A stretch of DNA of 64,000 nt from an uncultured bacterium (lineage in GTDB: Bacteria > Patescibacteriota > Minisyncoccia > UBA6257 > GWB1-50-10): positions 98,612-162,611 of the forward strand of contig CAVRNT010000001.1 of the NCBI GenBank assembly GCA_963722655.1, written 5' to 3'. The notes below the pieces were generated by a model that was not told the DNA's origin, made no database searches, and was given only the letters and a program-made list of their open reading frames with translations. This document shows, piece by piece, positions 3,946-44,774 of the stretch. Within the stretch, counting starts at the first letter, position 1. Each line of letters opens with the position of its first letter. The translations under genes and the position numbers were made by a program.

Positions 3946-5049
3946 CTAGCCCTTGATGGGCATCGCGACGTAGGTGGTGGTTTTGTCGCCTTCGCCGCTC
4001 AAGACGATTGGTTTTTCCGATGAGTTGAAGCCTAGGACGACGTTCCCGGTCCTTTGGATCTTCAGCCCGTCCAAGATGTAGCGCCAATTGAAGACGATTG
4101 AGAACTTGTCGCCGGAAAGCTTCACCGGAACTTTGTAGTTGTTCTCGCCGACCGAGGCGTCCGCCGCGTAGATCTCGAGGAACTTTTTATTCTCTCCGAT
4201 CCGGATTGTGATGTCATTGCTTTTACCCGAGAAGGTGCTCGCCAGTTTCACCGCGTTCAATATCTCCTGCTTGTCCAGAACGACCTTCGTCTTGCAGTCC
4301 TTCGGCACCACCGCCTTATAGTCCGGGAATTTTCCGTCGATGAGACGGGAGACCAAACGCCTGTTTTGGTCCTTGAACATCGCTTGGTTCTGATCGAGGA
4401 ACACTTCAATGGGTTCGCTGTCGCCGAAAACCCTCGGTATCTCACTCGCGGTCTTGAGGGGGAGGATAACAGAAAAATCGGAGCGTTTCCCCTCAATCTT
4501 CTCGCCGCTCAAGGTCCTTTCCGCCAAACGAAAACCGTCGGTCGCGACGAACTCGATCTCTTCGCCGTCGAACGCGATGAGCACGCCGCTGATCTCCGGC
4601 CGGATTTCCGAATACTGGGCGGAGGTGATCACGCTCCCAATCGCCTCCCGGAGCTCCTTGGCGTCGATCTTGAACGGCTCCCCGCCGTCGACGGCGGGAA
4701 TAATCGGGAAGTCGCCGGCATCCTGACCCTGGATTACCGCCTCGTAGTTGTCGGTGGTGACGGTGATTTTACCGCCCTTCTCCTCGATCGCGACCCGTTC
4801 GGCGGCGAGATTTCTCAAGATCGAGCTGAAGACCGAGAACGGTGCCGCCACCGCGCCGGATTCTATAATTTTTCCCGGGACGACGCACTCGACCGCCAAC
4901 TCGAGGTTCGTCGAGGTGAGAATGATCCTTCCGCCGTCGGTCTTGAAGAGGAAACTTTTAAGGATCGGCAAATTGGAATTTTCCCCGACGCCGCGCTCAA
5001 TAACCCCAAGGGCCTCTATTAAGTTCGTTCTTAGTATTATTAACTTCAT
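3946..5049 (-). CDS. dnaN: DNA polymerase III beta subunit (sliding clamp)
   Basis: 367 aa, MKLIILRTNLIEALGVIERGVGENSNLPILKSFLF...; lies immediately downstream of dnaA in the canonical dnaA-dnaN order. Confidence 0.85.
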   Translation of the reverse strand: MKLIILRTNLIEALGVIERGVGENSNLPILKSFLFKTDGGRIILTSTNLELAVECVVPGKIIESGAVAAPFSVFSSILRNLAAERVAIEEKGGKITVTTDNYEAVIQGQDAGDFPIIPAVDGGEPFKIDAKELREAIGSVITSAQYSEIRPEISGVLIAFDGEEIEFVATDGFRLAERTLSGEKIEGKRSDFSVILPLKTASEIPRVFGDSEPIEVFLDQNQAMFKDQNRRLVSRLIDGKFPDYKAVVPKDCKTKVVLDKQEILNAVKLASTFSGKSNDITIRIGENKKFLEIYAADASVGENNYKVPVKLSGDKFSIVFNWRYILDGLKIQRTGNVVLGFNSSEKPIVLSGEGDKTTTYVAMPIKG

Positions 5050-6595: not shown

Positions 6596-6835
6596 CCTGT
6601 TATTAGAAGCTTGGTTTTGGGAAAACTTCGACTGGTTTCAATAAATCGATTTGGAAAATTGAGTTCAAGTTTATTTTTACCAAAGCCTCTAACAGGATTC
6701 ATGATCTTTTAACGGTTTGCACTTCAGGTTCATCATAGTGATATTTTGGGACGGCGCAACGTTGCGATAAGACCCTAACTGTGCTTTAATTGTGCATTAT
6801 CTGTTGATAGTCGCAACGGGGTATAATCAGAAAAG
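6596..6835. promoter_or_regulatory. Candidate oriC/divergent promoter region between dnaA and rpmH
   Basis: AT-rich 240-nt intergenic region with DnaA-box-like 9-mers (TGTTGATAG, a 1-2 mismatch variant of TGTGGATAA) and TATAAT at 6822-6827 just upstream of rpmH. Confidence 0.3.
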
Positions 6836-7230: not shown

Positions 7231-7873
7231 CGCCATAATCTATCAACCGATCCTCTGGGTATTGGTCTTTTTGTATCAAAACGCCTCTTTCGGCGACCTC
7301 GGAGTCGCGATTATCCTCCTTACGATAATTGTCCGGTTGATTCTCCTTCCGCTTTTCTACAAGGGGGCCAAAGACCAGACTGTCCTCCAGCGACTTCAGC
7401 CACACATCAAGAAGATCCAGTTGGACCACAAGGACGACAAGGAGAAACAGGCGCGGGCGATGATGGAACTCTATAAGACGAACAAGGTCAATCCGTTCTC
7501 CGGTTTTCTCCTCCTTCTTCTCCAGCTTCCCATCTTCATAGCCCTCTTCGAGATATTCACCAAAGGGATAACGTCGGTCGGTTTCGCTAACCCAACCCTC
7601 TTCGGGATGGACTTGGCGGCGAAGAGTATCGTCCTCGCGGCGGTCGCGGCCGCCCTCCAGTACCTTCAGGCGCGTCTTACGATGCCGACGAAGAGCATGG
7701 AGACCGCCCAGCGGATGATGGTGTTTTTGGGACCGGCAGTGACGATTATTGTCCTTTGGAACCTCCCGGCGGCCCTCAGCCTGTACTGGAGCGTCTCAAA
7801 CTTGTTTTCCTTGGGCCAGCAGGTCTATATTAATAAAAAACTCGCTCCCCTGCCGGACGAGCCGAAGAAATAA
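7214..7873 (+). CDS. yidC: Membrane protein insertase YidC (short form)
   Basis: 219 aa, polytopic, YidC/Oxa1 core; position follows rnpA. Confidence 0.8.
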   Translation: MGAIFDAIIYQPILWVLVFLYQNASFGDLGVAIILLTIIVRLILLPLFYKGAKDQTVLQRLQPHIKKIQLDHKDDKEKQARAMMELYKTNKVNPFSGFLLLLLQLPIFIALFEIFTKGITSVGFANPTLFGMDLAAKSIVLAAVAAALQYLQARLTMPTKSMETAQRMMVFLGPAVTIIVLWNLPAALSLYWSVSNLFSLGQQVYINKKLAPLPDEPKK

Positions 7874-8307: not shown

Positions 8308-9518
8308 TCCCCCGTTACGGGGATACTCCCACTTGCATTAGGCGTGGCGGGCAGCGGCAGCGGATTATTTCCGATATTGAGTGCATAGAGGTAGTTATCG
8401 AATCGGTTAATGAAATAAAGATTACCGCCGGCGATAGCCGGTTTTCCCGCGTCTAGCGGACCGCTGTTTGCGGCGAGCGGCAGAAGAGTGGAGACACCAC
8501 TTACGGTATCAACGCCGTAAAGGACGTCGTTGGAGTAGACCTTCCTCTCGAGATAATCGTCGGGCAGTGAGGCGCTCTTGAAATTGCTATTCGTCGGAAC
8601 GAAGCAATAAACGATCGAGCCGGAGTTCAGCGAGCACTTTGAGGGAAGAGTGATGAAAGGTATCGGCGCGACGTTCTGCAGGGTTTGACTCTTGAGGACC
8701 TGGAACCCGCTCGCCGAGGAATAGGTTATGAGAGTTGAACCATCATTCGTGAGTTCGGTGATTAGGCCGTTTAGCGGACCCATTAAGAGATTGATCGCGG
8801 ATGTTTTAATGTTAAAACTCCAAATCCTTCCACCATAGTTCGCGTTCCCCTTCTCCTTGATGAGGAGCGTGCTTGGCGGAACGAAATCAAATGAGGTGTC
8901 CAGTAATCGGAGGTCGTTCACAAGTACCCTTGGTTTCGGGGGCGTTTTTGTGAGGTCGAGCGTCACCAAATTGACATTAGACCCGTTCTGCTCGGTCGCC
9001 ACGAGCGTGTCGGAGTCCGCTCCCCAGGTCGCGTTCAAGATGTTAGCTGGCAGGGGTCGCCAAACCTGGTCAATGGCGTCGTAAATTCCCCAACTCGGCA
9101 GACGCGGGTCGCCGAAGGCGGCCAGGATGGATTTCCCATCCGGACTTTGTTTGATGAAGTTCACGGCGCTCACACCCTGCTGGGTGATCTGGGGATTCTT
9201 CTCTCCCGACTCGGCCTGCCAGACGATGCCACCTTGGTCCAAATAGAAGACCTCGCCCGTTCCTGGGTCGGTCCAGAAGAACGAAACCGGTTTATCCGAT
9301 ACCCTAATTAGAGCTCCGATAGTCGTCGTTGCTCCCACCGAGGGAATGCCACCGCCGCTAGTACTGGTACTGGTCAATCCGGCGAGGGGGAAATAGGGTG
9401 CGCTCGTCGGGCTGACCGGAGTCGGTTTCGTCGTAGTGCTCGTCCAGATAAAGTAAATTAAGAGACCAACAATTATAATCGCACTGACGACAATAATTAA
9501 TTTTACATAAGGTTTCAT
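8304..9518 (-). CDS. Secreted/membrane-anchored hypothetical protein, beta-propeller-like (first gene boundary of T4SS-like operon)
   Basis: 404 aa. N-terminal TM helix (LIIVVSAIIIVGLLIYFIW), then a Thr/Ser-rich linker, then PD40/TolB-like repeat character. Confidence 0.4.
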   Translation of the reverse strand: MKPYVKLIIVVSAIIIVGLLIYFIWTSTTTKPTPVSPTSAPYFPLAGLTSTSTSGGGIPSVGATTTIGALIRVSDKPVSFFWTDPGTGEVFYLDQGGIVWQAESGEKNPQITQQGVSAVNFIKQSPDGKSILAAFGDPRLPSWGIYDAIDQVWRPLPANILNATWGADSDTLVATEQNGSNVNLVTLDLTKTPPKPRVLVNDLRLLDTSFDFVPPSTLLIKEKGNANYGGRIWSFNIKTSAINLLMGPLNGLITELTNDGSTLITYSSASGFQVLKSQTLQNVAPIPFITLPSKCSLNSGSIVYCFVPTNSNFKSASLPDDYLERKVYSNDVLYGVDTVSGVSTLLPLAANSGPLDAGKPAIAGGNLYFINRFDNYLYALNIGNNPLPLPATPNASGSIPVTGD

Positions 9519-11981: not shown

Positions 11982-13738
11982 TTTTCTTGTAATCCTTTTA
12001 TCTCGAGCATCTGCTCCGGATTCGTCGTGATGATCTGGTCCTCGGTGTAGGAGGCGATGATTTTGATCGCAACGTGCTTCAGCCCCGCGAAGAAGAGTCC
12101 CTCGCCGACCGCGGCCTCCAAAAGGAAGGCCTTCTCGCCCTCGGTGAGGCCGAAGGCCTTGGCGACGGCCTCGATGCTCGTCGGGGACTGTTTTAATAGT
12201 AGCTGAAGCGATGAGTTGGAGATGATCGGCGCGCCGTATTCCGACTTAATGAAGTCGTCCACGTCCTGGGTGATGGTCGTGACGCCGAGGAAGTACTTGC
12301 GGGCGCGCTTCACGAGCCCGAAGAGGAAGGAAGCACTGTCCTTGTATTTCATCATCCACCAGGCCTCGTCGATCACGAGCATCCGCTGTTTCAAAGACGA
12401 CCGGATGAGGTTCCAGACGAAGTTCAATACGATGTACATCGCGATCGGCCGGAGCTCTTCCTCGAGATCGCGGATTGAGAAGACGATGAGGCGGTTCTTG
12501 ATATCCACGTTCGTTGGGGCGTTCGTGAAGCCGGAGTAGGAGCCGTTCACGTATTTATCCAAACGCGCCGCCATTCCCCGGCCGCCCTCGCTGCTTTGGA
12601 GGACGGTCTGAAGATCGCCGAGGAGGGGCGGATTCAGTTCTTTGAGCGAACCGAAGTTATCGGCCGTGATGTCGCGGGAGGCGTAGGTCTCGGTGATCGC
12701 CCGGTCGAGCATCGCCTCCTCCTCCGGCGTGATCTTGCCGAGCATCAGCTTCACTAATCCGGTGAGGTTCAGGATATGCGACTTAAAGACGTCGGCCGGC
12801 TCCTCTCCCTCGGGGATGATCGGGATGTCGAACGGGTTCACGTGGCTTTCGGAAGTGAGGGAGATCTTGAAATAGCTGCCGCCGATCGCGTTCGCGAGGT
12901 TCTGGTACTCGTTCTCCGGATCGATGACGAGGACGTCCGTGCCCATCATCATCGAGCGGAGTATTTGGAGCTTGGTGGCGTAGGACTTGCCCGAACCGGA
13001 TTTGGCAAAGACAACCATATTGGCGTTCTCGAGCGAGAACCGGTCGAAGATGATGAGCCCGTTGTTATTCAAATTAATGCCGTACATCGTGCCAGTCTCA
13101 GAAGAGAGGTCCGGCGAGACGAAGGGGAAAAGCGACGAGGCCGGACCGGTGTTTAGGGGCGTCCGCAAGGCGAGTTTGTCCTCCCCGAGGGGCAGAACGG
13201 AGGTCAATCCTTCGGTTTGGCGGAAAAGCGCCGGTTTGGCGTAGACCAGCTTGCTTTCCAGGGCGTTCACGACAGTCTCCTCAAGAGTCTTGAGGTCCTC
13301 TTGGGTCGAGGCGTAGAGGGTGATGTAAACCCCGACTTCGAAAAGCCGCTCCCGCGCCTGCTGAAGGGAGTCCCGGAGGGTCTCTACGTCCTCGTGGGCG
13401 GTCTCAAGGACCGGGTCGCGGACGATGCCCTTCGCCTCCTTCTCATTCATCTCGGCCTCGATCTGGGCCACCTTCTTCCGCAGGTTCCGAAGGGCGAGCG
13501 CCGTGTCCATCGGATGCATGAAGATCGAGATGTCGATCATCGCTGGCAAATTTATAATGGACGAGAACCAACCGCTCGTGACGAATCGCGGATAGGTGAA
13601 GATGAAGATTGTCTTCGTGAAGTAATCGCCGATCTTCAAATAGTTGCTCCCCACCTCTAATCCGGCGGGGGCGATGATGTTCGGCAGGTCCTCTTCGCCC
13701 GGCTTGTAGGCCTTGGGTATTTTGATCTCGTCGCTCAT
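11978..13738 (-). CDS. VirB4/TrbE/CagE-family type IV secretion ATPase (C-terminal ATPase part)
   Basis: 586 aa. Walker A VVFAKSGSGKSYATK, Walker B LVIDEAWWMM and VirB4-like overall organisation. Confidence 0.75.
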   Translation of the reverse strand: MSDEIKIPKAYKPGEEDLPNIIAPAGLEVGSNYLKIGDYFTKTIFIFTYPRFVTSGWFSSIINLPAMIDISIFMHPMDTALALRNLRKKVAQIEAEMNEKEAKGIVRDPVLETAHEDVETLRDSLQQARERLFEVGVYITLYASTQEDLKTLEETVVNALESKLVYAKPALFRQTEGLTSVLPLGEDKLALRTPLNTGPASSLFPFVSPDLSSETGTMYGINLNNNGLIIFDRFSLENANMVVFAKSGSGKSYATKLQILRSMMMGTDVLVIDPENEYQNLANAIGGSYFKISLTSESHVNPFDIPIIPEGEEPADVFKSHILNLTGLVKLMLGKITPEEEAMLDRAITETYASRDITADNFGSLKELNPPLLGDLQTVLQSSEGGRGMAARLDKYVNGSYSGFTNAPTNVDIKNRLIVFSIRDLEEELRPIAMYIVLNFVWNLIRSSLKQRMLVIDEAWWMMKYKDSASFLFGLVKRARKYFLGVTTITQDVDDFIKSEYGAPIISNSSLQLLLKQSPTSIEAVAKAFGLTEGEKAFLLEAAVGEGLFFAGLKHVAIKIIASYTEDQIITTNPEQMLEIKGLQEK

Positions 13739-18180: not shown

Positions 18181-19776
18181 CTATCTGTTGGCTTCGCACT
18201 GCTGTTGTTTGTTTTGGGCCGCCGCAAGGGTTATTTGAATGCCAGAGAGCATAATCTGGACGTTGCTATCTAAGTTGGCCGCAGTCATTGTGAGGTTGGC
18301 GACATTGCTAGAATCAACGCTATTTAGCGTACTGGACGTGACATTCGGGTCACCGATGATGCCAATCAGCGTGTTGACCGAAACCGTTGAAGAAGTAACC
18401 TGAACCGCCGCTTGTTGTAACGCGGCGGGCGTCGAACTCACGGCGATCGTCAGATTCTCCTGAGCCCAGCCGTAGTCGGGGTTGACGGGATTAGTGCCCA
18501 AGCAACCAATGAGCCCGGTAATTGGCCCGCCCAACGTCGTTATTAGGGTTTGATTGGTGCTAGAAGCGGTCGCGAGCGTCGTTGATGCGTCGGCGAGCGA
18601 ACTTGCGGCCTGGTTCAGTTGGGTCATGTACTGGCTCTGGAGCGCCGTGTTTATGGTATTAGTGTAGTTATTTGCCGCTGTGATCGTCGATGTGTTATTG
18701 GTCAGTGATTCCGGAGACGGCGCGTTTGGACCGCTAGACGGCTGGCCGCCGTTCGTCGCCGAAAGGATGACCCCTTGCAGGCCCTGCACCCCCGCCTTGA
18801 TCAGTCGGTTAAAGGCGGCGTCGGCGATCATTGCGATCGCGTTCGTTATATCCGGATCGCTGATGGTGAGATCGAGGTTAGCGTACAGCGATTTATTCAA
18901 GCCCTCTGCGAGAGCGGCGCCCGGCGTGGAGATCTTAAGATCGGCGCACTTCCACTGAAGTGTCGTTGGGTCCACGCCCGGCGCGACCAATGCTGGATCG
19001 AGGAAGTTCGGGGTGCCGCTGATGGGCGACGGCGGATTGTCCTGATCGGTGAGATTAGAAGGGGCCGGTACTGTCTGGGAGCCGACGGGCGTTCCACCTT
19101 GGATCTTGATGAGCCGCCAGCTGACGCATGACTGTGATTGGAACCCGACGTTCACTTGGGTTTGGAGGACGTTCTGAGCCGTAACCTGCTGAGCGTTGTT
19201 GTAAAGGGTGTCTTGGGTGATGATGTCTACGCCGTACTGGTTGTTCTGCGGCGCAAGGAGTTCGTAGTAGCCGATGACGCCGCCGGCGTCGAACCTGTTC
19301 CAGAAATCGTTGAAATTCGCGACGATGGAATTGAGCGTGCAGGAGCTCGGCTGGACCTGCGGGCTGGGGGCGGTTAGCTCCAGATTGACCTTGAAGCTGA
19401 ACGGGGAACAAAGGGTCGGCAGGATCGCCTGGGCCGTGTCCCCGACCGCTTGGTTCAGCGCTGGCTGGAAGACCCCTTGGCCGAAATTCTGGATGAACTT
19501 CGGGCTGCCGCCGCCGTTTATCCAGGTGATTATCTGATCGGTCATCGTGTCGATAATCCGCTTTTTAAGTGCGGACAAGGCAACTTTCAAGAGATTATCT
19601 TGCACCCATTGCCACACGCTTTGCGTTTTAGCCGCAGTGGTTATGTTTTGTAATGTTGGGTCGGAAACCAACATCACTCCAGCTACTTGAGCTTTTGCTG
19701 TTGGCGTAAAAAAACCGGGAGCCGAAATAACAGTAACAATGCCAAAAATTAAAACTGCGGTAAGAAATTTTTTCAT
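18181..19776 (-). CDS. Secreted Thr/Ser/Asn-rich hypothetical protein
   Basis: 531 aa with signal peptide (MKKFLTAVLIFGIVTVISAPGFFTPTAKA) and low-complexity T/S/N/Q-rich regions. Confidence 0.4.
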   Translation of the reverse strand: MKKFLTAVLIFGIVTVISAPGFFTPTAKAQVAGVMLVSDPTLQNITTAAKTQSVWQWVQDNLLKVALSALKKRIIDTMTDQIITWINGGGSPKFIQNFGQGVFQPALNQAVGDTAQAILPTLCSPFSFKVNLELTAPSPQVQPSSCTLNSIVANFNDFWNRFDAGGVIGYYELLAPQNNQYGVDIITQDTLYNNAQQVTAQNVLQTQVNVGFQSQSCVSWRLIKIQGGTPVGSQTVPAPSNLTDQDNPPSPISGTPNFLDPALVAPGVDPTTLQWKCADLKISTPGAALAEGLNKSLYANLDLTISDPDITNAIAMIADAAFNRLIKAGVQGLQGVILSATNGGQPSSGPNAPSPESLTNNTSTITAANNYTNTINTALQSQYMTQLNQAASSLADASTTLATASSTNQTLITTLGGPITGLIGCLGTNPVNPDYGWAQENLTIAVSSTPAALQQAAVQVTSSTVSVNTLIGIIGDPNVTSSTLNSVDSSNVANLTMTAANLDSNVQIMLSGIQITLAAAQNKQQQCEANR

Positions 19777-20573
19777 GAAGCCAATGATTGATATTGCGCT
19801 TGCATGGTTTGTTGAACCGTCAAATTCTCATTGAGAATATCGTTGATTTGGTTCAAACCGATAACCGCCTTAGCTGGATCGTTCGCGAGGTCGGCGATGG
19901 CCGAGAAGACAGTTATTTTCTCTTCCCAAAGGTTGATGTTAGAAAGGTGCCAGGCCGCCCAGTTGTTCGGCGCGCGCAAAGCCAAGAGGTCCACGACCTC
20001 CTGGTTTGCGATCGCGATGTACTGGTTTAGGGCTGAAGTGTCGTTGTTGTTAAAAAAGTTCGATACCATCTTGTCCATCGGCGTCTTAAAAGAGCCGAAA
20101 TCCTTTTGGGTGATCGCTCCTACGGCGGCGAGGTATTGGAGCTGGCTCGTTGTCGAAACATCGTCCGATGTCAGAATATCCTCCGGAGCGTAGGTTTTGT
20201 ATTGGAGCTTTTGGTTGATGGCTTGAGAGAGGAGTTGACTCGTCTCGTCCACGGACGGGAAGCTGATAGGGTTGGAGCCGGTCGCACTCGCGCCGGCGAA
20301 GCCGCTGTTCATCTGGAAAACGGTTTGGGCGTAGTTTTGCGTCAAAAGGTCGGTGAGATTATCCGTTACCGCTGCGGTCCCGCTCGCAGTGCCGCCGTTG
20401 TTCATCGGTCCGCGGTTCGCGCTCACGGTGTAGTCCAAGCTGCCGTCTGCACCAGCGCCAGTCTTGGCCGTGACCAAGGGTGCGTTACTTGACGAAGACG
20501 CCCCGATGATGACGAAAAATAGAGCGATTCCGCCCAAAAGAACGATCGCGGCGATGATTTTTCGTCTTTTCAT
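19773..20573 (-). CDS. Membrane-anchored/secreted hypothetical protein
   Basis: 266 aa with N-terminal TM helix (IIAAIVLLGGIALFFVIIGAS); first gene of the operon in transcription order. Confidence 0.4.
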   Translation of the reverse strand: MKRRKIIAAIVLLGGIALFFVIIGASSSSNAPLVTAKTGAGADGSLDYTVSANRGPMNNGGTASGTAAVTDNLTDLLTQNYAQTVFQMNSGFAGASATGSNPISFPSVDETSQLLSQAINQKLQYKTYAPEDILTSDDVSTTSQLQYLAAVGAITQKDFGSFKTPMDKMVSNFFNNNDTSALNQYIAIANQEVVDLLALRAPNNWAAWHLSNINLWEEKITVFSAIADLANDPAKAVIGLNQINDILNENLTVQQTMQAQYQSLAS

Positions 20574-20628: not shown

Positions 20629-21441
20629 CTATTTTAGCCCCCGAGCCAGCTTAATTATCGTAGGTAGGTCCAAGTTCTGAGGTCGATCGGCCGGGTCGAT
20701 GCCGAAACGCTTTAATTTTTCGGTCAACCTCTCTCTTGTCTCTCGTCCCCGGTCTCTTGCCGCTAGGTTATTCAATATGGTTTTACGCGGTTGTTTGAAG
20801 AGGGCAGTGATAAATAGGTAGAAAACATCGGATTTTATCGGCGTTTTGGGCAGAGGGACAACCTCGATGATCGCCGAATCCACTTTCGGGGCCGGACGGA
20901 ACGATTTTCGGTCCACTTCGGCCAAAGTCCGCGGCCGCGCCCAAAATTGGACGCTTGCAGCGAGGAGATTCATTTCCGGTGGGCAAGCGCAGAGCCGATT
21001 CGCCACCTCCTTTTGGATCAAGAGGACGATCTTTTTCGGTTTCGGGTCCAATTCCGACAAGATCCGCAAAAGATGGCCGGTCAGGTAGTAGGGAATATTG
21101 CCGACCAGTTTGTAGTGAGTAGTGAGTAGTGAGTAACTCTTATTTTTGATCATCTCCGGCAAGACACTTAAAACGTCGCCGCCGATAATTTCGACATTTT
21201 TATCATTCTTAAATTTATCCCTCAGTAAACTAACCAGCTGCCCATCCTTTTCAATGGCCAGTATTCTTGATTCTCTATTCTTAATTCTCAATTCCCGCGT
21301 AAGCTCCCCGTGCCCCGGGCCGATCTCGATGACGGTGTTGCCCCCTCCGAGCACCAATGCGGCCGCAATCTTTTTGAGCGCGCTTTTGTCTTTGAGGAAA
21401 TTCTGGCCGAGAGATCTTTTAGGTTTCATTTGTGTTCGCAT
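20629..21441 (-). CDS. rsmA: 16S rRNA (adenine1518-N6/adenine1519-N6)-dimethyltransferase
   Basis: 270 aa with LGQNFL, SAM-binding VIEIGPGHGELT and NIPYY motifs. An in-frame heptamer-repeat insert lies at 21118-21147. Confidence 0.85.
   Translation of the reverse strand: MRTQMKPKRSLGQNFLKDKSALKKIAAALVLGGGNTVIEIGPGHGELTRELRIKNRESRILAIEKDGQLVSLLRDKFKNDKNVEIIGGDVLSVLPEMIKNKSYSLLTTHYKLVGNIPYYLTGHLLRILSELDPKPKKIVLLIQKEVANRLCACPPEMNLLAASVQFWARPRTLAEVDRKSFRPAPKVDSAIIEVVPLPKTPIKSDVFYLFITALFKQPRKTILNNLAARDRGRETRERLTEKLKRFGIDPADRPQNLDLPTIIKLARGLK
21118..21147. repeat. 30-nt (ACTCACT)n-containing repeat, in frame inside rsmA
   Basis: Reverse complement TTACTCACTACTCACTACTCACTACAAACT is identical to 44652-44681 in folD. 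Confidence 0.8.
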
Positions 21442-25588: not shown

Positions 25589-26158
25589 TTATTTTCTATA
25601 GTTCCTATCCCTGGTCTCCTGTCTCCGGTCGCTTGTCTCTTGACCCCGGTCCTTGATCTTAAGGAGGGCCCGCGGCATCCGCTCGATCTCCGTGAACTTC
25701 GTCGCGATCTCCTTGAGCTTGCCCGAAGAGGTGTGACCGAAGCCGGCTACCTCCACGTCGCGGCCCATCCCCGTCTTCAAATACTCCACGAGCGGAATGA
25801 AATCACCGTCGCCGGTCACGAGGACCACGACGTCGAGCATCGGCGAGTAGCGAACGGCGTCTACAGCGAGACCCACGTCCCAATCCCCCTTCTTCGTGCC
25901 GTCGGGATAGACCTGGAGGTCCTTCACCCGGAGGTCGAAACCGCTTTTCTTTAAGGCCTCGAAGAAGGAATCCTCCCCGAGGGCCGTATCGCTCTTCGCG
26001 ACGTAGGCGAAGGCGCGGATGAGGGACCGGCGGCCGACGACGTTCCGGAGCAGTTCCTTGAAGTTGACCCGAGCGCGATAGAGGTTCTTCGCGGAATGGT
26101 AAACGTTCTGGACGTCCACGAAGACGCCCACCCGTTGAGAGGGATGTTCGTAAGACAT
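25589..26158 (-). CDS. NYN-domain (LabA/PIN-like) protein
   Basis: 189 aa; VGVFVDVQNVYHS...LVTGDGDFIPLVEYL matches the NYN/DUF88 pattern. Confidence 0.6.
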   Translation of the reverse strand: MSYEHPSQRVGVFVDVQNVYHSAKNLYRARVNFKELLRNVVGRRSLIRAFAYVAKSDTALGEDSFFEALKKSGFDLRVKDLQVYPDGTKKGDWDVGLAVDAVRYSPMLDVVVLVTGDGDFIPLVEYLKTGMGRDVEVAGFGHTSSGKLKEIATKFTEIERMPRALLKIKDRGQETSDRRQETRDRNYRK

Positions 26159-27457: not shown

Positions 27458-27539
27458 TGCCCTCGAGAGGATTTGAACCTCTAACCCTTGCGGGACAGCG
27501 TCCTAAGCGCTGCGCGTATGCCAATTCCGCCACGAGGGC
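27458..27539 (-). tRNA. tRNA-Leu (anticodon UAG), type II with long variable arm
   Basis: Hand-folded cloverleaf: acceptor GCCCTCG/CGAGGGC, anticodon loop CTTAGGA, variable arm TCCCGCAAGGGTT, T-loop TTCAAAT; CCA is not encoded. Confidence 0.8.
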
Positions 27540-34468: not shown

Positions 34469-36916
34469 TTAAAGGCAAACTATGCCCACTAACTTATCCC
34501 CCTTCTCCAGGTTCATGATCTTCACTCCCTGGGTCGCGCGGGAAAGGACGCGAATGTCCTTCAAGGCCGTCCGAAGGGCTTGGCCCTTGGTCGAGAAGGC
34601 GAGCACCTCCGTTGTCGCGTCGTCCACGATGTGGGCGCCGATCACTGGACCGGTCTTTCCAGTGATTTTCGCGGTCTTGATGCCCGAGCCGCCGCGCTTT
34701 TGGACCTTGTACTCCTTGAGGAGCGTCTGCTTGGCGAAACCGTTCGCCATCACGGCGACCAACCTCCCCCTTTCCGCATCCTCTTTCTTTATTATATCAA
34801 GCCCGCTCACCATATCCCCCTTGCCGAGGCGCATGGCCTTCACACCCGAAGCGCCGCGGCCCATCGCCCGGATGTCCTTTTCCTTGAAACGGATGGCCTG
34901 GCCGAGGGCCGAGGAGATGATGATCTGGTCCTCCCCGCCCGAGAGCCGGACCCAACCCAGCGAGTCCCCCGCCGTAAGCTTGATGGCGATGATGCCGTTC
35001 CGGCGGACGTTGCCGAAGTCGCTCAAAGCCGTCTTTTTGACGATACCTTCCTTCGTGACCATCACGAGGAAGTTCTTGCCGCTCGCGAGCTCGTTCGAAT
35101 AAGCCACGATTGCGCTCACCTTTTCCGTCCCCGGCATCTCGAGGAAGTTGTAGATCGCCCGGCCCTTCGCGGTGCGGCTCGCGACCGGGATCTCGTAGAC
35201 CTTGGTCTGGAAGACCTTGCCTTGGTTGGTGAAAAAGAGGATGTTGTCGTGCGTGTTCGCGGAAAGGAACTGATAGATCAAGTCCTCCTCCTTGAGGTCG
35301 AAGCCGATGAGGCCTTTGCCGCCGCGCTTCTGGACGCGGAAGGTGTCAGGCGGCATCCGTTTGATGTAGCCGTCCTGGGTCAAAGTGATGAGCGCCTCTT
35401 CGGAAGCGATCAAATCCTCCTCCTTGAACTCCTTGAGACCGCTCGCGACGATCTTCGTCCGGCGGCCCTCCGGGAAGGTTTTTTGAAGAAAGGCTAGGTC
35501 CTCCTTGATGATCCCGAGGATCTTCTTCGGCTGTTTCAAAATAAGCTCCAGTTCGGCGATGAGCTTCCGCTTTTCCACGAGCTCGTCCTCCAGTTTCTGG
35601 TGTTCAAGGGCGGCCAGGGTCTGGAGGCGCATCTCGAGGATCGCGTCCGCTTGGAGCGCCGTGAGCTTGAAGCTCTTCATCAAGTTCTGTTTTGCGTCCT
35701 CGCGGTCCTTTGATCTCTTGATGGTCGCGATGACCTTATCGATGACGTCCAAGGCCCTAACAAGACCTTCCAAGATGTGCTCGCGCTCCTTAGCCTTCTT
35801 GAGATCGAACTCGGTCCGGCGGCGGATGACGATCTTCCGGTGCTCCAGGTAAGCCGCAAGCACTTCCTTGAGCGAAAAGATCTGCGGCTGGATGCCGTCC
35901 ATAAGGGCCAGCATGTTCAAATAGAAGTTCTTCTGGAGCTCGGTGTACTCGTAGAGCTGGTTCAAGATCTTCTGGGGCGCGGCATCGGATTTGAGCTCGA
36001 CGACGATGCGCAATCCTTCGCGGTCGGATTCGTCCCGGAGGTCGCGGATGCCGTCGATCTTCTTCTCGGTCACGAGCTCTGCCATTTTGGTGATGAGGTC
36101 GGATTTGTTCACTTGGTACGGGATCTCCGTAATGATGATCTGGAAAGCGCCGGACTTGCGTTCCTCGACCTCGGCCTTGGCCCGCATTGTGATAGAGCCC
36201 TTGCCGGTCGCGTAGGCCTCTTCAATGCCCTTTTTGTTGTAGATCACACCACCAGTCGGGAAGTCCGGTCCGGGCAGGAACTCCATCAGCTCTTTGACGG
36301 AGGCGTCGGTATGGTCGATCAAATAGGCCGTCGCGTCGGCGACCTCGCCCAAATTGTGGGGCGGGATGGACGTCGTCATGCCGACCGCGATGCCGGAGGC
36401 GCCGTTCAAAAGTAGGTTCGGGAGCTTGGCCGGGAGGTAGCGGGGTTCATCGCGCGTCGCGTCATAGTTGGGTTGCCACTCCACGGTCTCCTTCTCGATG
36501 TCCTGGAGCATCTCCTCGGCGATCTTCGAGAGGCGCGCCTCGGTGTAACGCATCGCGGCGGGGCTGTCGCCGTCAATCGAACCCCAATTCCCTTGGCCGT
36601 CGATCAACGGGTAACGCAAAGAGAAGTCCTGGGCCATTCTGGCCAAGGCGTCGTAAACCGAAAGGTCGCCGTGGGGATGGTATTTGCCAAGCACTTCGCC
36701 GACGACGTTCGCTGACTTCTTGAACTTCGCCGCGTGGGTGAGGCCCGAGTCCCACATCGCCCAGAGGATGCGCCGCTGGACGGGCTTCATGCCGTCGCGG
36801 ACGTCCGGCAGGGCGCGCGAGACGATGACGGACATAGCATAGTCCAAATAGGATTCCTTGAGCTCCGCCGTGATCTCCCGGTCCTTGATGTTCTCCTTTT
36901 TGATGTCGTCCTCCAT
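34469..36916 (-). CDS. gyrA: DNA gyrase subunit A
   Basis: 815 aa with active-site region [18 protein letters not shown] and a C-terminal beta-pinwheel. Confidence 0.9.
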
Positions 36917-36947
36917 TGTGAAATATTAAATATTTAATGTTTAAACA

Positions 36948-37355
36948 TCACTGCGTCGTGCTCGTCGCCTCCAATTGGAGTGTATTCGTCCTTTGTATCT
37001 GGTTTTGGAAATCCTGCCAAGCCCCGCCAATCACGTTCCCAATGTTTTGGAAGCCGCTCCCGAGGTCCTGCCAGACGATACCGAAACCCCGACCCAGCGT
37101 TCCGAAGAAAGAGCCAGTCTTGGTCTCGCCCGAGGCGCCAGGGAAAGACGTCGTCGCGCTCGAGGTGGCGGTCGCCACCTCCGGCGCCGCTTGCGGTAGG
37201 GTCATATTGAGGTAAACCAGCCAGAGGAAGACGACGACGATCATTAATACGGCGGAGACGCCGTACAGATACCGCCTTTTGGTCTTGTCGTCGGCGCGCT
37301 GGAGGCGCTTTATGAAATCGCGGGTCTTAGTGGCCGTTTCTTTGATGTTCGGCAT
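36948..37355 (-). CDS. Small membrane-anchored hypothetical protein
   Basis: About 135 aa from the internal Met (MPNIKETATKTRDF...) with one TM; the ORF-track start at 37439 would overlap the upstream gene by 80 nt. Confidence 0.3.
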   Translation of the reverse strand: MPNIKETATKTRDFIKRLQRADDKTKRRYLYGVSAVLMIVVVFLWLVYLNMTLPQAAPEVATATSSATTSFPGASGETKTGSFFGTLGRGFGIVWQDLGSGFQNIGNVIGGAWQDFQNQIQRTNTLQLEATSTTQ

Positions 37356-41038: not shown

Positions 41039-41114
41039 GGGCCAGTAGCATAGCGGCTAATGCAACGAGCTTATACCTCGTAGACCGAGGGTTCGAGTCC
41101 TTCCTGGCCCACCA
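41039..41114 (+). tRNA. tRNA-Ile (anticodon UAU) with encoded CCA
   Basis: Hand-folded: acceptor GGGCCAG/CTGGCCC, D-stem GCAT/ATGC, anticodon stem ACGAG/CTCGT with loop CTTATAC, T-loop TTCGAGT, discriminator A, CCA. Confidence 0.55.
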
Positions 41115-41116
41115 GA

Positions 41117-41188
41117 GGGCGATTAGCTTAGTGGTAGAGCGTCTCGTTTACACCGAGAAGGTCGGGGGTTCGATCCCCTCATCGCCCA
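41117..41188 (+). tRNA. tRNA-Val (anticodon UAC)
   Basis: Hand-folded: acceptor GGGCGAT/ATCGCCC, anticodon loop TTTACAC, T-loop TTCGATC; starts 2 nt after the preceding tRNA; CCA not encoded. Confidence 0.7.
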
Positions 41189-42360: not shown

Positions 42361-42696
42361 ATGTTCAATCTCGGTAAAAACAAATATTTTGTCGCTGGAT
42401 TCGCCATATTGATGGCGGTGGGACTCATGGCTGCCTACATTCCGATGCTCTTTCCGCAGGTCCCGGCCGGGAATACCGGCGTCGTCTCGGGCGACATTTT
42501 GGGCAACGTCTCCGGCGACATCTCCGGCACGGCCCAGCTTAACCAGAACGCCTTAAGCGGCACCGACGTCCAGACGGCGACCTCAACGCCGACCTCGACT
42601 GATAAATCGGCCAGCTTGCCGTCGAGCTTATCCGGTCTTCAGGACGAACAGAACTCTCTGAACGACATCAACAATCTCCTGAACCAGAGCCAATAG
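42361..42696 (+). CDS. Small membrane-anchored Ser/Thr-rich hypothetical protein
   Basis: 111 aa from MFNLGKNKYFVAGFAILMAVGLMAAYI with one TM and a low-complexity tail. Confidence 0.35.
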   Translation: MFNLGKNKYFVAGFAILMAVGLMAAYIPMLFPQVPAGNTGVVSGDILGNVSGDISGTAQLNQNALSGTDVQTATSTPTSTDKSASLPSSLSGLQDEQNSLNDINNLLNQSQ

Positions 42697-42792: not shown

Positions 42793-43950
42793 ATGAAGGA
42801 TAAAGAGATTCAAAAATTGATTGGAGCCGAAGAAAAACGCCAGAAAAGGACGGTCAATCTGATCGCCTCGGAGAACTTCGTCTCCGGAGACGTTTTGGAA
42901 GCGCTCGGTTCGGTTTTCACCAACAAATACGCGGAAGGTTATCCCGGCGCGCGGTATTACGGAGGCAACAAATTCGTTGACGGGCTCGAAAAGCTCGCGC
43001 AAAACCGCGCCTTAAAACTGTATAAATTGAGCCCCAAAACCTGGTCCGTTAACGTCCAGCCCTACTCCGGTTCCCCGGCCAACCTCGCGATTCTTTACGC
43101 CCTTGTACCTGTCGGAGAAAAGATAATGGGAATGGACCTTAATATGGGTGGCCACCTGACGCACGGATACAAGGCGAGCATCACTGGAAAATTATGGAAG
43201 CAGGTGCCTTATGGTGTGGATAAAAAAACCAAAAGGATCGACTATAATGAACTTTCAAGGATTGCCAGAAAAGAGAAGCCGAAGCTCATCATTGCCGGTG
43301 GGAGCGCCTATTCGCGGGCTATTGATTTCAAAAAATTCAGAAAAATAGCCGACGCGGCCGGAGCCATTTTACTCGTGGATATGTCCCACTTTGCCGGTCT
43401 CGTCGCTGGCGGCGTTTATTCTTCACCCTTTCCGTACGCTGACGTCGTGATGACGACAACGCACAAAACGCTTCGCGGTCCGCGCGCGGCGCTCGTCTTT
43501 TCAAAAAAGGAATATTCTCCGGCGATAGACAAAACGGTCTTCCCCGGCCTTCAGGGCGGACCGCACGCGAACGCGATTGCGGCCGTCGCCGTAGCGCTAA
43601 AAGAAGCTAGTGAACCGAGTTTCAAAAGATACGCGCGGCAGGTAATCAAAAACGCCCAAGCTCTCGCGGCGGGACTCCAAAAGCGCGGCTGGCGTATCGT
43701 CTCCGGCGGCACGGACACACACCTATTTTTGGTTGATACGATGAGCCGCGGTATGAGCGGTAAGACGGCGAGCGAGAAACTGGAGAAGGCCGGGATTATC
43801 GTGAACAAAAATATGCTCCCCTACGATACGCGCAAGCCGTCCGATCCCTCCGGCATCCGTCTCGGCACCGCGGCTATGACGACGAGAGGAATGAAGGAAA
43901 AGGATATGAAGAAGCTAGCAGAAAAGATAGATAAGGTCTTGGGAAAATGA
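42793..43950 (+). CDS. glyA: Serine hydroxymethyltransferase
   Basis: 385 aa; PLP-site region TTTHKTLRGPR and N-terminal LIASENFVS. Confidence 0.85.
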   Translation: MKDKEIQKLIGAEEKRQKRTVNLIASENFVSGDVLEALGSVFTNKYAEGYPGARYYGGNKFVDGLEKLAQNRALKLYKLSPKTWSVNVQPYSGSPANLAILYALVPVGEKIMGMDLNMGGHLTHGYKASITGKLWKQVPYGVDKKTKRIDYNELSRIARKEKPKLIIAGGSAYSRAIDFKKFRKIADAAGAILLVDMSHFAGLVAGGVYSSPFPYADVVMTTTHKTLRGPRAALVFSKKEYSPAIDKTVFPGLQGGPHANAIAAVAVALKEASEPSFKRYARQVIKNAQALAAGLQKRGWRIVSGGTDTHLFLVDTMSRGMSGKTASEKLEKAGIIVNKNMLPYDTRKPSDPSGIRLGTAAMTTRGMKEKDMKKLAEKIDKVLGK

Positions 43951-44774
43951 TTATAGATGGTAAACAAATAGCGGCGGAGATAATCGCCGAGCTTAAGAAA
44001 AAGCCGAAGCCGAAAAAATTCTTCGCGGCTTTTCTGGTCGGCAACGATTTTGCCTCGGCGAGTTTCCTGAACCAAAAGAAAAAGATCGCAGAAGAATTGG
44101 GTATTGATTTCCGTTTGTATAAGTTTCCGGAGGCGGTCTCACAAGACGAACTGCGGAAGGAGGTTTTGAAGACCGCCGAACACAAAAATTGCGGTGGCGT
44201 TATCGTCCAATTACCACTCCCCGCTTCGATAAGCGCCCAGTATGTTTTGAACGTCATTCCGCGCGATAAGGACGTGGACGTGCTCGGTGAAAGAGCGCTC
44301 GGTGCCTTCTATGCCGGCCGAAATTCGGTTTTGCCTCCAGCCGTTGGAGTTGTAGAAATCGTTCTACAAACTACTCACCACTCACTACAAACTAGTGCCG
44401 TAGCCGTGCTCGGTGCCGGGGCTTTAGTCGGCAAGCCGATAGCGGCCTGGCTCACGGGTAAGTGCAAAGAGGTTTTTATTTTGGACAAAGGCAACGATTT
44501 AAGTACTTTGAAGAACGCCGATGTAGTCATCTGCGGCGCAGGCGTTTCCGGTCTTGTGAAGCCGGAGATGCTCAAGGAAAACGCGCTCGTCATAGATTTC
44601 GGCTACAGACTAAAGGATGGCAAACCCTCCGGAGATTTTGATTCGTCAGGTTTACTCACTACTCACTACTCACTACAAACTATTTCGTATACTCCCACTC
44701 CCGGTGGCACCGGGCCGATTCTCGTCGCGAAACTATTCGAGAACTTTTTTACTCTTCTTCGGCCGAAGGATTAG
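43947..44774 (+). CDS. folD: Bifunctional methylenetetrahydrofolate dehydrogenase/cyclohydrolase
   Basis: 275 aa with MIIDGKQIA..., VGKPIA and TPTPGGTGP motifs. Two heptamer-repeat blocks are embedded in frame. Confidence 0.85.
44365..44393. repeat. (ACTCACT)-type repeat variant CTACAAACTACTCACCACTCACTACAAACT in frame in folD
   Basis: Read directly; CTACAAACT is duplicated at both ends; encodes [10 protein letters not shown]. Confidence 0.7.
44652..44681. repeat. 30-nt TTACTCACTACTCACTACTCACTACAAACT, in frame in folD
   Basis: Identical to the reverse complement of 21118-21147 in rsmA; encodes [10 protein letters not shown]. Confidence 0.8.

Follow-up and report, generated by a model that had tools for sequence, protein, structure and literature searches.

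An excess of heptameric simple sequence repeats (SSRs) in many bacterial genomes was noted by Mrazek 2007, as cited in PMC4692102. In Xanthomonas and Nostoc, heptamer SSRs of the GGGNATC type show a preference for four units and lie on the sense strand less than 50 bp behind stop codons, between co-directional open reading frames (ORFs); they are under-represented both within coding regions and between divergent ORFs (PMC4692102). Here we analyse heptamer repeats that stand inside genes. They occur in a 64,000-nucleotide stretch of DNA (contig CAVRNT010000001.1 of assembly GCA_963722655.1, positions 98,612 to 162,611; hereafter the window) from an uncultured bacterium of the Patescibacteria, the candidate phyla radiation (CPR). 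One 30-nucleotide (nt) array of 7-nt units is found in both rsmA and folD, two unrelated housekeeping genes, and a variant of it occupies a second site in folD. We consider it probable, though by no means certain, that these blocks are in-frame, sense-strand copies of a heptanucleotide repeat family that resembles repetitive extragenic palindromes (REPs) between genes, occupies permissive sites in coding sequence and evolves in concert.

REPs carry the tetranucleotide GTAG as their conserved, defining head. Another point of comparison is provided by the Rickettsia palindromic elements (RPEs), which are ~150 bp long and are found in frame in housekeeping genes (PMC10969869). DNA uptake sequences (DUS) occur at a density of ~1 per 1.1-1.5 kb (PMC2397512), and the com machinery is conserved across CPR, with Saccharibacteria being naturally competent (PMC10633639). 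A literature search for the repeat sequence itself, for heptamer arrays in CPR genes or for REPs in CPR found no relevant paper within its incomplete coverage.

Results

Identical heptamer arrays in rsmA and folD

The exact 30-mer TTACTCACTACTCACTACTCACTACAAACT occurs twice in the window, once on the plus strand in folD and once as its reverse complement in rsmA. The variant array CTACAAACTACTCACCACTCACTACAAACT lies upstream of the first copy in folD. The host genes and the three blocks are as follows:

20629-21441, minus strand: rsmA, 16S rRNA adenine dimethyltransferase, host gene (Pfam RrnaAD, E=5.6e-45)
21107-21136, minus strand: CTAC-type array in rsmA, three ACTCACT units and one ACAAACT preceded by TT, directly ahead of VGNIPYY
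43947-44774, plus strand: folD, methylene-tetrahydrofolate dehydrogenase/cyclohydrolase, host gene (Pfam THF_DHG_CYH and THF_DHG_CYH_C), identical to P0001
44364-44393, plus strand: variant array, folD site 1, CT ACAAACT ACTCACC ACTCACT ACAAACT, ahead of the AVAVLGAG Rossmann strand
44652-44681, plus strand: the same 30-mer as in rsmA, folD site 2, in a loop and in another frame than in rsmA

For rsmA, the public collection places the start codon 4 codons downstream of the ORF start (P0121, 266 aa). Each block consists of four head-to-tail 7-nt units, and Tandem Repeats Finder (TRF) reports period 7, 3.4 copies and 100% matches for both 30-mers. An earlier, sequence-only reading of this DNA had reported all three blocks. 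Its position for the 30-mer in folD was exact; the rsmA copy exists but lies 11 nt from the 21118-21147 given there, and the folD variant, placed with its start at 44365, spans 44364-44393. That reading also held that such an identity could not be due to chance, and none of 100 dinucleotide-preserving shuffles produced a 30-mer pair, the chance expectation being none. ORF translations confirm that the three blocks are, as it had said, in frame and free of stop codons. What it had not noticed is that the two genes read the same 30-mer in different frames: TAC TCA CTA CTC... in rsmA and TTA CTC ACT ACT... in folD. The resulting peptides are nevertheless alike, as rotations of one heptapeptide, because 3 x 7 nt make 7 codons.

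Short repeats can mislead assemblers and the source genome is metagenome-derived, so an artefact or a chimeric join at the repeat has to be weighed. An independent Logan assembly, L001, 100% identical over 5.4 kb, contains folD with both of its blocks base for base; the blocks are therefore not the artefact of a single assembly. Each block is flanked on its two sides by one and the same gene, in frame, and contigs from many projects carry these arrays at corresponding gene sites. The sequence-only reading had raised a chimeric assembly in case the repeat were found only here, and the family is present in at least 120 other contigs. We regard an artefact as effectively refuted.

The sequences bordering the blocks (AAGAG...GGTCG, CAGGT...ATTTC and TCGTT...AGTGC) contain no direct repeats. 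The coding copies themselves are 28-30 nt long, are G-free direct repeats without self-complementarity and represent one arm only of the paired structure described below.

A narrow repeat family abundant in Patescibacteria

A scan of metagenome contigs with the 21-mer composite ACTCACYACTCACTACAAACT found at least 120 loci. Among the matches listed, the GC content of contigs containing the composite lies between 30 and 61%, and groundwater or sediment projects are the source of many of them. RsmA and FolD of the window have as their nearest protein relatives sequences annotated as Patescibacteria (Parcubacteria, Wolfe-, Jorgensen-, Pace- and Colwellbacteria, Minisyncoccia). Counting as an array at least three CTAC tetranucleotides at 7-nt spacing, we obtained 195 arrays in 654 kb of loci that had been selected for containing one. 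Three trinucleotides, TCA, AAA and CAA, follow CTAC in 80% of the units outside the seed, and G appears in 8 of 341 units; 61 of the 64 possible trinucleotides after CTAC would be free of stops. Four CTAC repeats are favoured inside genes (40/54 arrays) and between them (87/141). The gene calls behind these counts, and behind all counts of gene context and genic fraction below, are crude longest-ORF calls.

As a comparison set we used genome-collection matches to the degenerate pattern (ACWMACY)x4, where the window's own lineage is not among the matches listed. Most of this set is made up of generic microsatellites with heptamer units, (ACTCACC)n and (ACTAACC)n among them, and many phyla are represented. 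The mixed ACAAACT/ACTCACT composites in it are from CPR, namely Peribacteria (L093), Azambacteria (L102) and a metagenome-assembled genome (MAG) of the Patescibacteria group (L117). A scan of viral contigs gave 0 matches. The family is narrow, made of CTAC followed by TCA, AAA or CAA and usually four units long, and it is abundant in Patescibacteria/CPR genomes.

Two individual loci deserve mention. In a Saccharibacteria MAG (L010), (ACAAACT)4 stands at two sites ~2 kb apart, both behind the flank TATAGTTTCA[A/C]AACT, which suggests a longer conserved Saccharibacteria element around the ACAAACT heptamer. In L245, a CTAC-type array, CTACTCACTACTTACTAC (7299-7316), is positioned within a called TsaE gene directly upstream of folD.

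Paired modules between genes

Intergenic copies in the related loci follow a constant order: behind the upstream stop codon come four to six units of GTAGnnn, then a short palindrome in the centre, then CTACnnn in four to six units, and finally the next start codon. In some loci the central palindrome is a canonical A-run/hairpin/T-run terminator. Among the 47 seeded copies with an inverted partner, all 47 have the order G-arm, loop, C-arm, and 0 have the reverse. The G-arm starts at a median of 7 nt past the stop codon, the array's own TAG serving as that stop in 16 cases, and the C-arm ends at a median of 15 nt ahead of the start codon. By gene context, 89 arms lie between co-directional, 18 between convergent and 4 between divergent genes. 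Four modules folded as RNA gave -33 to -48 kcal/mol, with z of -6 to -9. An Rfam search returned only tRNAs and no family for the modules.

We see in the paired modules candidate transcript-end or processing elements, in a group whose gene regulation is almost unknown. A G-free translational-enhancer leader would fit the median 15-nt spacing to the start codon, but the excess of convergent over divergent contexts (18 vs 4) links the modules more closely with the ends of genes than with their starts. We also set aside a Rho utilisation site, for which the spacing is wrong and the C-arm comes after the hairpin, and telomere-like addition, the copies being internal and dispersed.

Inverted pairs are also formed by families other than CTAC, at L143 (9043/9093), L154 (5836/5886 and 10058/10106) and L167 (2599/2982), with units of TAGAAAA, AGATTTA and GAATCAT type. 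The CTAC family is therefore not alone in having the paired-arm design.

Copies inside genes

The sequence-only reading had proposed comparing the genic and intergenic distribution of the repeat. Carried out on the related loci, this comparison places 54 of 195 arrays within genes. The genic share of the family, 54/195 (28%) and 26/76 (34%), compares with 11/111 (10%) for similar arrays from other phyla. All 54 genic copies are in the sense orientation and 0 are antisense, because three GTAGnnn units put a TAG in every frame. The CTAC strand with its common units is open in all frames, and the genic copies use all three.

Hosts confirmed by Pfam are TsaD, Pth, family-1 glycosyltransferases (GT1), UvrC, Asp/Glu racemase, Sua5/TsaC and PurA; for UvrD- and RecG-like hosts the identification comes from flanking motifs only. 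In L150, L179, L216 and L236 the array stands ahead of the (G/A)NIPYY motif of RsmA, as it does in the window, and the same protein site is reused across lineages in TsaD, Pth and GT1 as well.

Similar peptides in several proteins could point to selection at the protein level, in which both enzymes would have converged on a peptide of the LLTTHY/LQTTHY type. This explanation is effectively refuted by frame independence, as the same DNA is read in three frames and gives different local peptides. Moreover, the identity is at the nucleotide level with synonymous sites included, most copies are non-coding, and homologues of the two enzymes tolerate entirely different residues at these positions or lack them. 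We consider it extremely improbable.

Array sites in RsmA and FolD homologues

We aligned ~120 homologues of each protein and computed lag-7 statistics on 103-116 homologues per site. In most homologues the rsmA site and the two folD sites show a 7-residue period, with residues that are specific to each lineage. FolD site 1 segments include LQTTNYSLQT, IQNLKFKIQN and LRIQNRELRIQ, and site 2 segments include IENCKLKIEN, QLTTNDQQLTTN and LKPNTYNLKPS. In RsmA we find LTTNYKL-LTTNYKL, ITNYKLP-ITNYKVI, PKSYILN-PKSYKIV and ISHFPFP-ISHFKLV, and some homologues are missing one period altogether. Lag-7 residue identity reaches 0.32, 0.25 and 0.35 for the three sites, compared with ~0.03-0.12 at other lags and with 0.08 at lag 7 in a control region of FolD.

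The DNA of relatives has the same 7-nt sub-periodicity built from other units. L244 and L242 carry ATTGAAA-type arrays, L243 has nnACTAA and nnnATTC units, L245 reads ACAAACT ACAAATT ACTCACT ACAAACT, and L246 and L247 have ATAC-type arrays. As these alignments show, the rsmA and folD sites are old, permissive array sites rather than fresh insertions.

Length comparisons bear on the claim of the sequence-only reading that the rsmA block adds residues, and on its proposal to confirm that the blocks are insertions in surface loops. The claim holds only weakly, with a net +1 residue relative to the B. subtilis KsgA (6ifs) and ~+7-8 relative to the shortest CPR homologues. In folD, site 1 aligns without gaps to the LKHYHIEIKGK and LKAYEIDLEGK segments of solved FolDs (net 0), and in an AlphaFold 2 (AF2) model of FolD (mean predicted local distance difference test (pLDDT) score 92.4) it comprises the final turn of helix 131-142 together with the loop leading to the Rossmann strand 151-155. 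Site 2 is a net +5 residues longer than in solved FolDs and is modelled as a surface loop (residues 233-247) with a pLDDT of ~77, the lowest in the protein body. Net values of 0, +1 and +5 residues mean that tolerant segments are for the most part overwritten by the arrays and not simply lengthened.

Array turnover between relatives

The window, L246 and L244 share 83-88% nucleotide identity over flanking alignments of 2.3-3.0 kb, and folD site 2 is found in three states among them. The window has a CTAC array, L246 lacks an array and is shorter by exactly 21 nt, and L244 has an ATTGAAA array. The window thus has +7 residues at this site relative to L246, its closest relative. The sequence-only reading had named a heptamer microsatellite as one option, and this description is apt: the units are tandem and 7 nt long, period 7 is enriched, and the difference to the closest relative amounts to three units. 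The arrays do not behave like phase-variable contingency SSRs, in which unit number differs among close strains and switches the frame of surface or variable genes: the hosts are core housekeeping enzymes, the arrays are the same in near-identical contigs, and the one length difference seen, of 21 nt, keeps the frame.

Units also differ in a coordinated manner. L246 has ATGCAAA ATACTAA ACACCAG ATACAAA at folD site 1, and L247 has ATACCAA ATACGAA ATACGAA ATACACC at the rsmA site; in both cases every unit begins ATAC-like where those of the window have CTAC. One unit position is thus altered all along the array, a signature of concerted evolution. Few arrays are present on L246 and L247, and a genome-wide ATAC family in the closest relatives is putative.

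An RPE-like mobile element had also been suggested by the sequence-only reading. In such a scenario, a non-autonomous element of the kind of an RPE or a miniature inverted-repeat transposable element (MITE) would transpose in frame, and the two 30-mers would be two recent insertions. The exact 30-nt identity in two unlinked genes would be explained, as would the same composite in loops of many unrelated housekeeping proteins, the palindromic intergenic form, the decoupling of array sequence from host-gene phylogeny and the +21 nt at folD site 2 relative to L246. The likeness in effect is real, in that both are in-frame families at tolerant or surface positions of unrelated housekeeping genes, where they add or replace a short peptide. 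Membership is another matter. RPEs are palindromic and inserted whole, at ~150 bp, and discrete elements of RPE or MITE type measure about 100-500 bp, with inverted termini or palindromy throughout (PMC10969869), whereas the coding copies here are single-arm arrays of 28-30 nt with neither terminal inverted repeats nor target-site duplications in the form of flanking direct repeats, and there is no real net insertion at two of the three sites (0 at folD site 1, +1 in rsmA). The same sites are periodic with other units in most of the ~120 homologues, phylum-wide, and are in this sense long-standing. A tblastn search of ~780 kb with an approximate IS200 TnpA query gave a best E of 0.87 and so no IS200-like transposase match, a weak test as REP-associated tyrosine transposases (RAYTs) are single-copy and divergent. 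Recent transposition strikes us as quite unlikely.

Array conservation is partly independent of that of the host gene. The rsmA arrays are 83-97% identical to the window's, synonymous positions included, in genes that are ~48% nucleotide-identical elsewhere, a high identity that is in part built in, since the 21-mer served to find those loci. In L247, rsmA is 67% nucleotide-identical elsewhere and its array only 57%. Within FolD, tripeptide sharing between site 1 and site 2 is 0.25 vs 0.10 +/- 0.04 for random pairs. Phylum-wide ancient sites, a paired intergenic hairpin form and DNA-level conservation independent of gene phylogeny go beyond what the sequence-only reading had described.

Natural transformation offers another route to such a pattern. 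If the arrays were signals like the DUS of Neisseria or the uptake signal sequences (USS) of Pasteurellaceae, they would be recognised during transformation and spread by biased uptake and homologous recombination, replacing native sequence. DUS and USS share with the CTAC family inverted hairpin pairs behind genes, genic copies in permissive locations, a motif more conserved than its flanks (here with the ascertainment caveat just given) and arrival by recombination (PMC2397512), which would match the apparent replacement at these sites. Replacement without length change and decoupling from gene phylogeny are in keeping with such a signal, as are the com machinery conserved across CPR and natural competence in Saccharibacteria (PMC10633639). 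The density is lower, with 3 copies in 64 kb of the window and ~1 per 3.4 kb in the selected loci vs ~1 per 1.1-1.5 kb for DUS; several other heptamer families coexist with the CTAC family, and the tandem four-unit design is unlike known uptake sequences. We consider such a putative uptake signal improbable.

Period-7 excess and other heptamer arrays

The window contains 5 period-7 arrays vs 0-2 for any other period from 4 to 15, where a third-order Markov model predicts ~0.05. The five are the two 30-mers, a second array in rsmA, the array at the end of an NYN-domain gene and an AT-rich intergenic stretch by the gyrA start, the last three of which are described below. Four CPR loci selected by FolD contain 9 period-7 arrays vs 0-2 for other periods. 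In the metagenome loci with CTAC/GTAG masked, period 7 accounts for 98 arrays, and periods 6, 8, 9 and 12 for 7, 21, 15 and 4; several of the period-7 arrays in this masked set also form inverted pairs.

Neutral slippage could in principle account for such an excess. Heptamer microsatellites would arise anywhere and persist where tolerated, and the identity between copies would reflect the small number of stop-free, low-cost heptamers. The period-7 excess with many different units, the 21-nt difference to L246, the location of arrays at gene termini and in loops and the heptamer SSR excess known in many bacteria (PMC4692102) are all compatible with it. However, three trinucleotides make up 80% of units when 61 of 64 are stop-free after CTAC, one 21-mer is found in contigs of 30 to 61% GC, and synonymous positions are kept between genes that are saturated elsewhere. 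Neither the 47 to 0 arm geometry nor the four-unit preference would be expected. We judge slippage without any other force to be unlikely.

Three further heptamer-periodic features of the window belong to other unit families or are degenerate:

21259-21294, minus strand: second rsmA array, of another unit family, GAATTGA GAATTAA GAATAGA GAATCAA GAATAC, encoding the peptide ELRIKNRESRIL; TRF periods 7 and 14
20728-20763, minus strand: degenerate heptamer-periodic segment in the C-terminal part of rsmA, AARDRGRETRER, weak in the window
25614-25642, minus strand: heptamer array encoding the C-terminal tail of an NYN-domain protein, QETSDRRQETRDR, reported by TRF (ORF 25589-26158; Pfam NYN, E=3.5e-32)

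The second rsmA array has a lag-7 signal in 47 of 119 RsmA homologues and is kept with point changes in L247. Its AGAATnn-type unit also builds folD site 1 in L244 (LRIQNRELRIQD). The L247 orthologue of the degenerate rsmA segment is a clear array, GACAAGC GACACGA GACAAGC GACAAGG. The tail of the NYN-domain protein is QETSDRRQETRDRNYRK*, and on the plus strand its array is of GTCTCCT type.

Outside the window, the 20-kb locus L243 has five clean heptamer arrays (4404-4438, 6619-6658, 6697-6739, 9390-9429 and 12592-12629), each made of another unit. By position they fall within called genes for isoleucyl-tRNA synthetase (IleRS), MOFRL-family proteins (two arrays), serine hydroxymethyltransferase (SHMT) and arginyl-tRNA synthetase (ArgRS). 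This locus gives a measure of how densely some CPR genomes are seeded.

Two other repeats in the window stand apart. An AT-rich period-7 stretch of AAATATT type (36915-36948) lies in the short spacer between the start of gyrA (36916) and the end of the neighbouring ORF (36948), and may be a promoter region rather than an instance of the heptamer-array phenomenon. A 12/24-nt tandem repeat, CCGGCGACATCT, with 4.4 copies and ~70% matches, lies at 42476-42529 just upstream of the SHMT gene and differs in kind from the heptamer arrays because its period is a multiple of 3. Three tRNA genes are at 41039-41111 (+) and 41117-41188 (+), which are adjacent, and at 27458-27539 (-).

Downstream of rsmA, at 18181-20573 (-), are two ORFs of 266 and 531 aa with no Pfam match. 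In L247 (2145-12103), rsmA is followed by genes of 265 and 530 aa and then by TrbL, PrgI, TraC-like, VirB4-like and type IV secretion system (T4SS) pilin genes. Because lengths and order agree between the two, a type IV secretion cluster conserved in Patescibacteria may adjoin rsmA, as predicted from gene arrangement.

Discussion

The arrays are of a known kind, that of heptanucleotide SSRs with a REP-like form, and are distinguished by their phylum-wide, in-frame occupation of essential genes. With the heptameric SSRs of cyanobacteria (short tandemly repeated repetitive sequences, STRR) and of Xanthomonas and Nostoc, the CTAC family shares tandem 7-nt units, the period-7 excess and a length of about four units. 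In the related loci it also shares their placement, on one strand a short distance past stop codons, where the neighbouring ORFs are co-directional or convergent and seldom divergent. It differs in that its intergenic copies are inverted pairs around a small palindrome, and in that 28-34% of its arrays are genic and found in essential enzymes, in contrast to the described families with their depletion from coding regions. The CTAC family has no G-tracts, so that a G-quadruplex offers no rationale for its four units. A four-unit preference in their absence therefore speaks against a general validity of the G-quadruplex explanation.

The likeness to REPs and to bacterial interspersed mosaic elements (BIMEs) concerns the intergenic modules. 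In the related loci these are dispersed, multi-copy hairpins that are preceded by GTAG on each strand and lie at the 3' ends of co-directional or convergent genes. However, the arms of the CTAC family are tandem heptamers where a REP is a unique palindrome, and REPs and BIMEs are restricted to extragenic space, unlike the CTAC family (3/3 copies genic in the window, 54/195 in the related loci). REPs go together with RAYTs, and the weak tblastn search described above revealed no RAYT-like gene in the ~780 kb sampled.

The account that we favour combines these features. Arrays would be born and resized by slipped-strand mispairing or by unequal exchange on 7-nt units. An array within an essential gene would be free to change only by three units (21 nt) and only where the structure is tolerant, which would be why tolerant segments are overwritten more than they are extended. 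The whole family would be subject to a sequence-specific force that keeps the CTAC units uniform; the likeliest candidate is selection, either on the hairpin modules between genes or on a factor recognising these modules, and ectopic conversion or allele exchange among dispersed copies may add to this uniformity. On such a model rsmA and folD would share a 30-mer since both sites currently hold the same version of the family, and no double insertion would be needed.

Several points count against this account of a family evolving in concert. Slippage explains neither arrays of different families at one site nor the four-unit preference, and the trans-acting factor is putative only. Direct evidence for unit-wise change consists of the one 21-nt difference to L246, and no polymorphism in unit number was seen between near-identical contigs in five or six pairs. 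Only 13 of 120 FolDs share tripeptides between their own two sites; homogenisation across sites is real but at best partial. The 64-kb window contains no CTAC/GTAG intergenic module, all 3 copies being genic, and therefore no conversion donors are visible within it. The coarseness of the longest-ORF calls and the selection of loci through the 21-mer, both mentioned above, weigh on the same side.

A bolder possibility, to which we attach a small probability, is that the arrays are the target of a conserved, CPR-wide trans system. Such a system could be an uptake or recombination signal, or an enzyme that synthesises or converts arrays, and it would rewrite tolerant segments by molecular drive. 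If this were true, Patescibacterial proteomes would contain phylum-wide "cassette" loops dictated by a process at the level of nucleic acids and not by protein function.

The heptanucleotide excess of bacterial genomes has been known since 2007 without an accepted cause (PMC4692102), and it is found here in a phylum of tiny, streamlined genomes. Arrays inside genes give an evolutionary read-out that intergenic repeats cannot give, namely which positions tolerate an array, how fast cassettes turn over relative to their flanks and whether units change in concert. The arrays show that a repeat process at the DNA level, and not selection at the protein level, shapes short segments of CPR housekeeping proteins. 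This is relevant to the alignment, phylogeny and structure prediction of CPR proteins, and to marker-gene trees.

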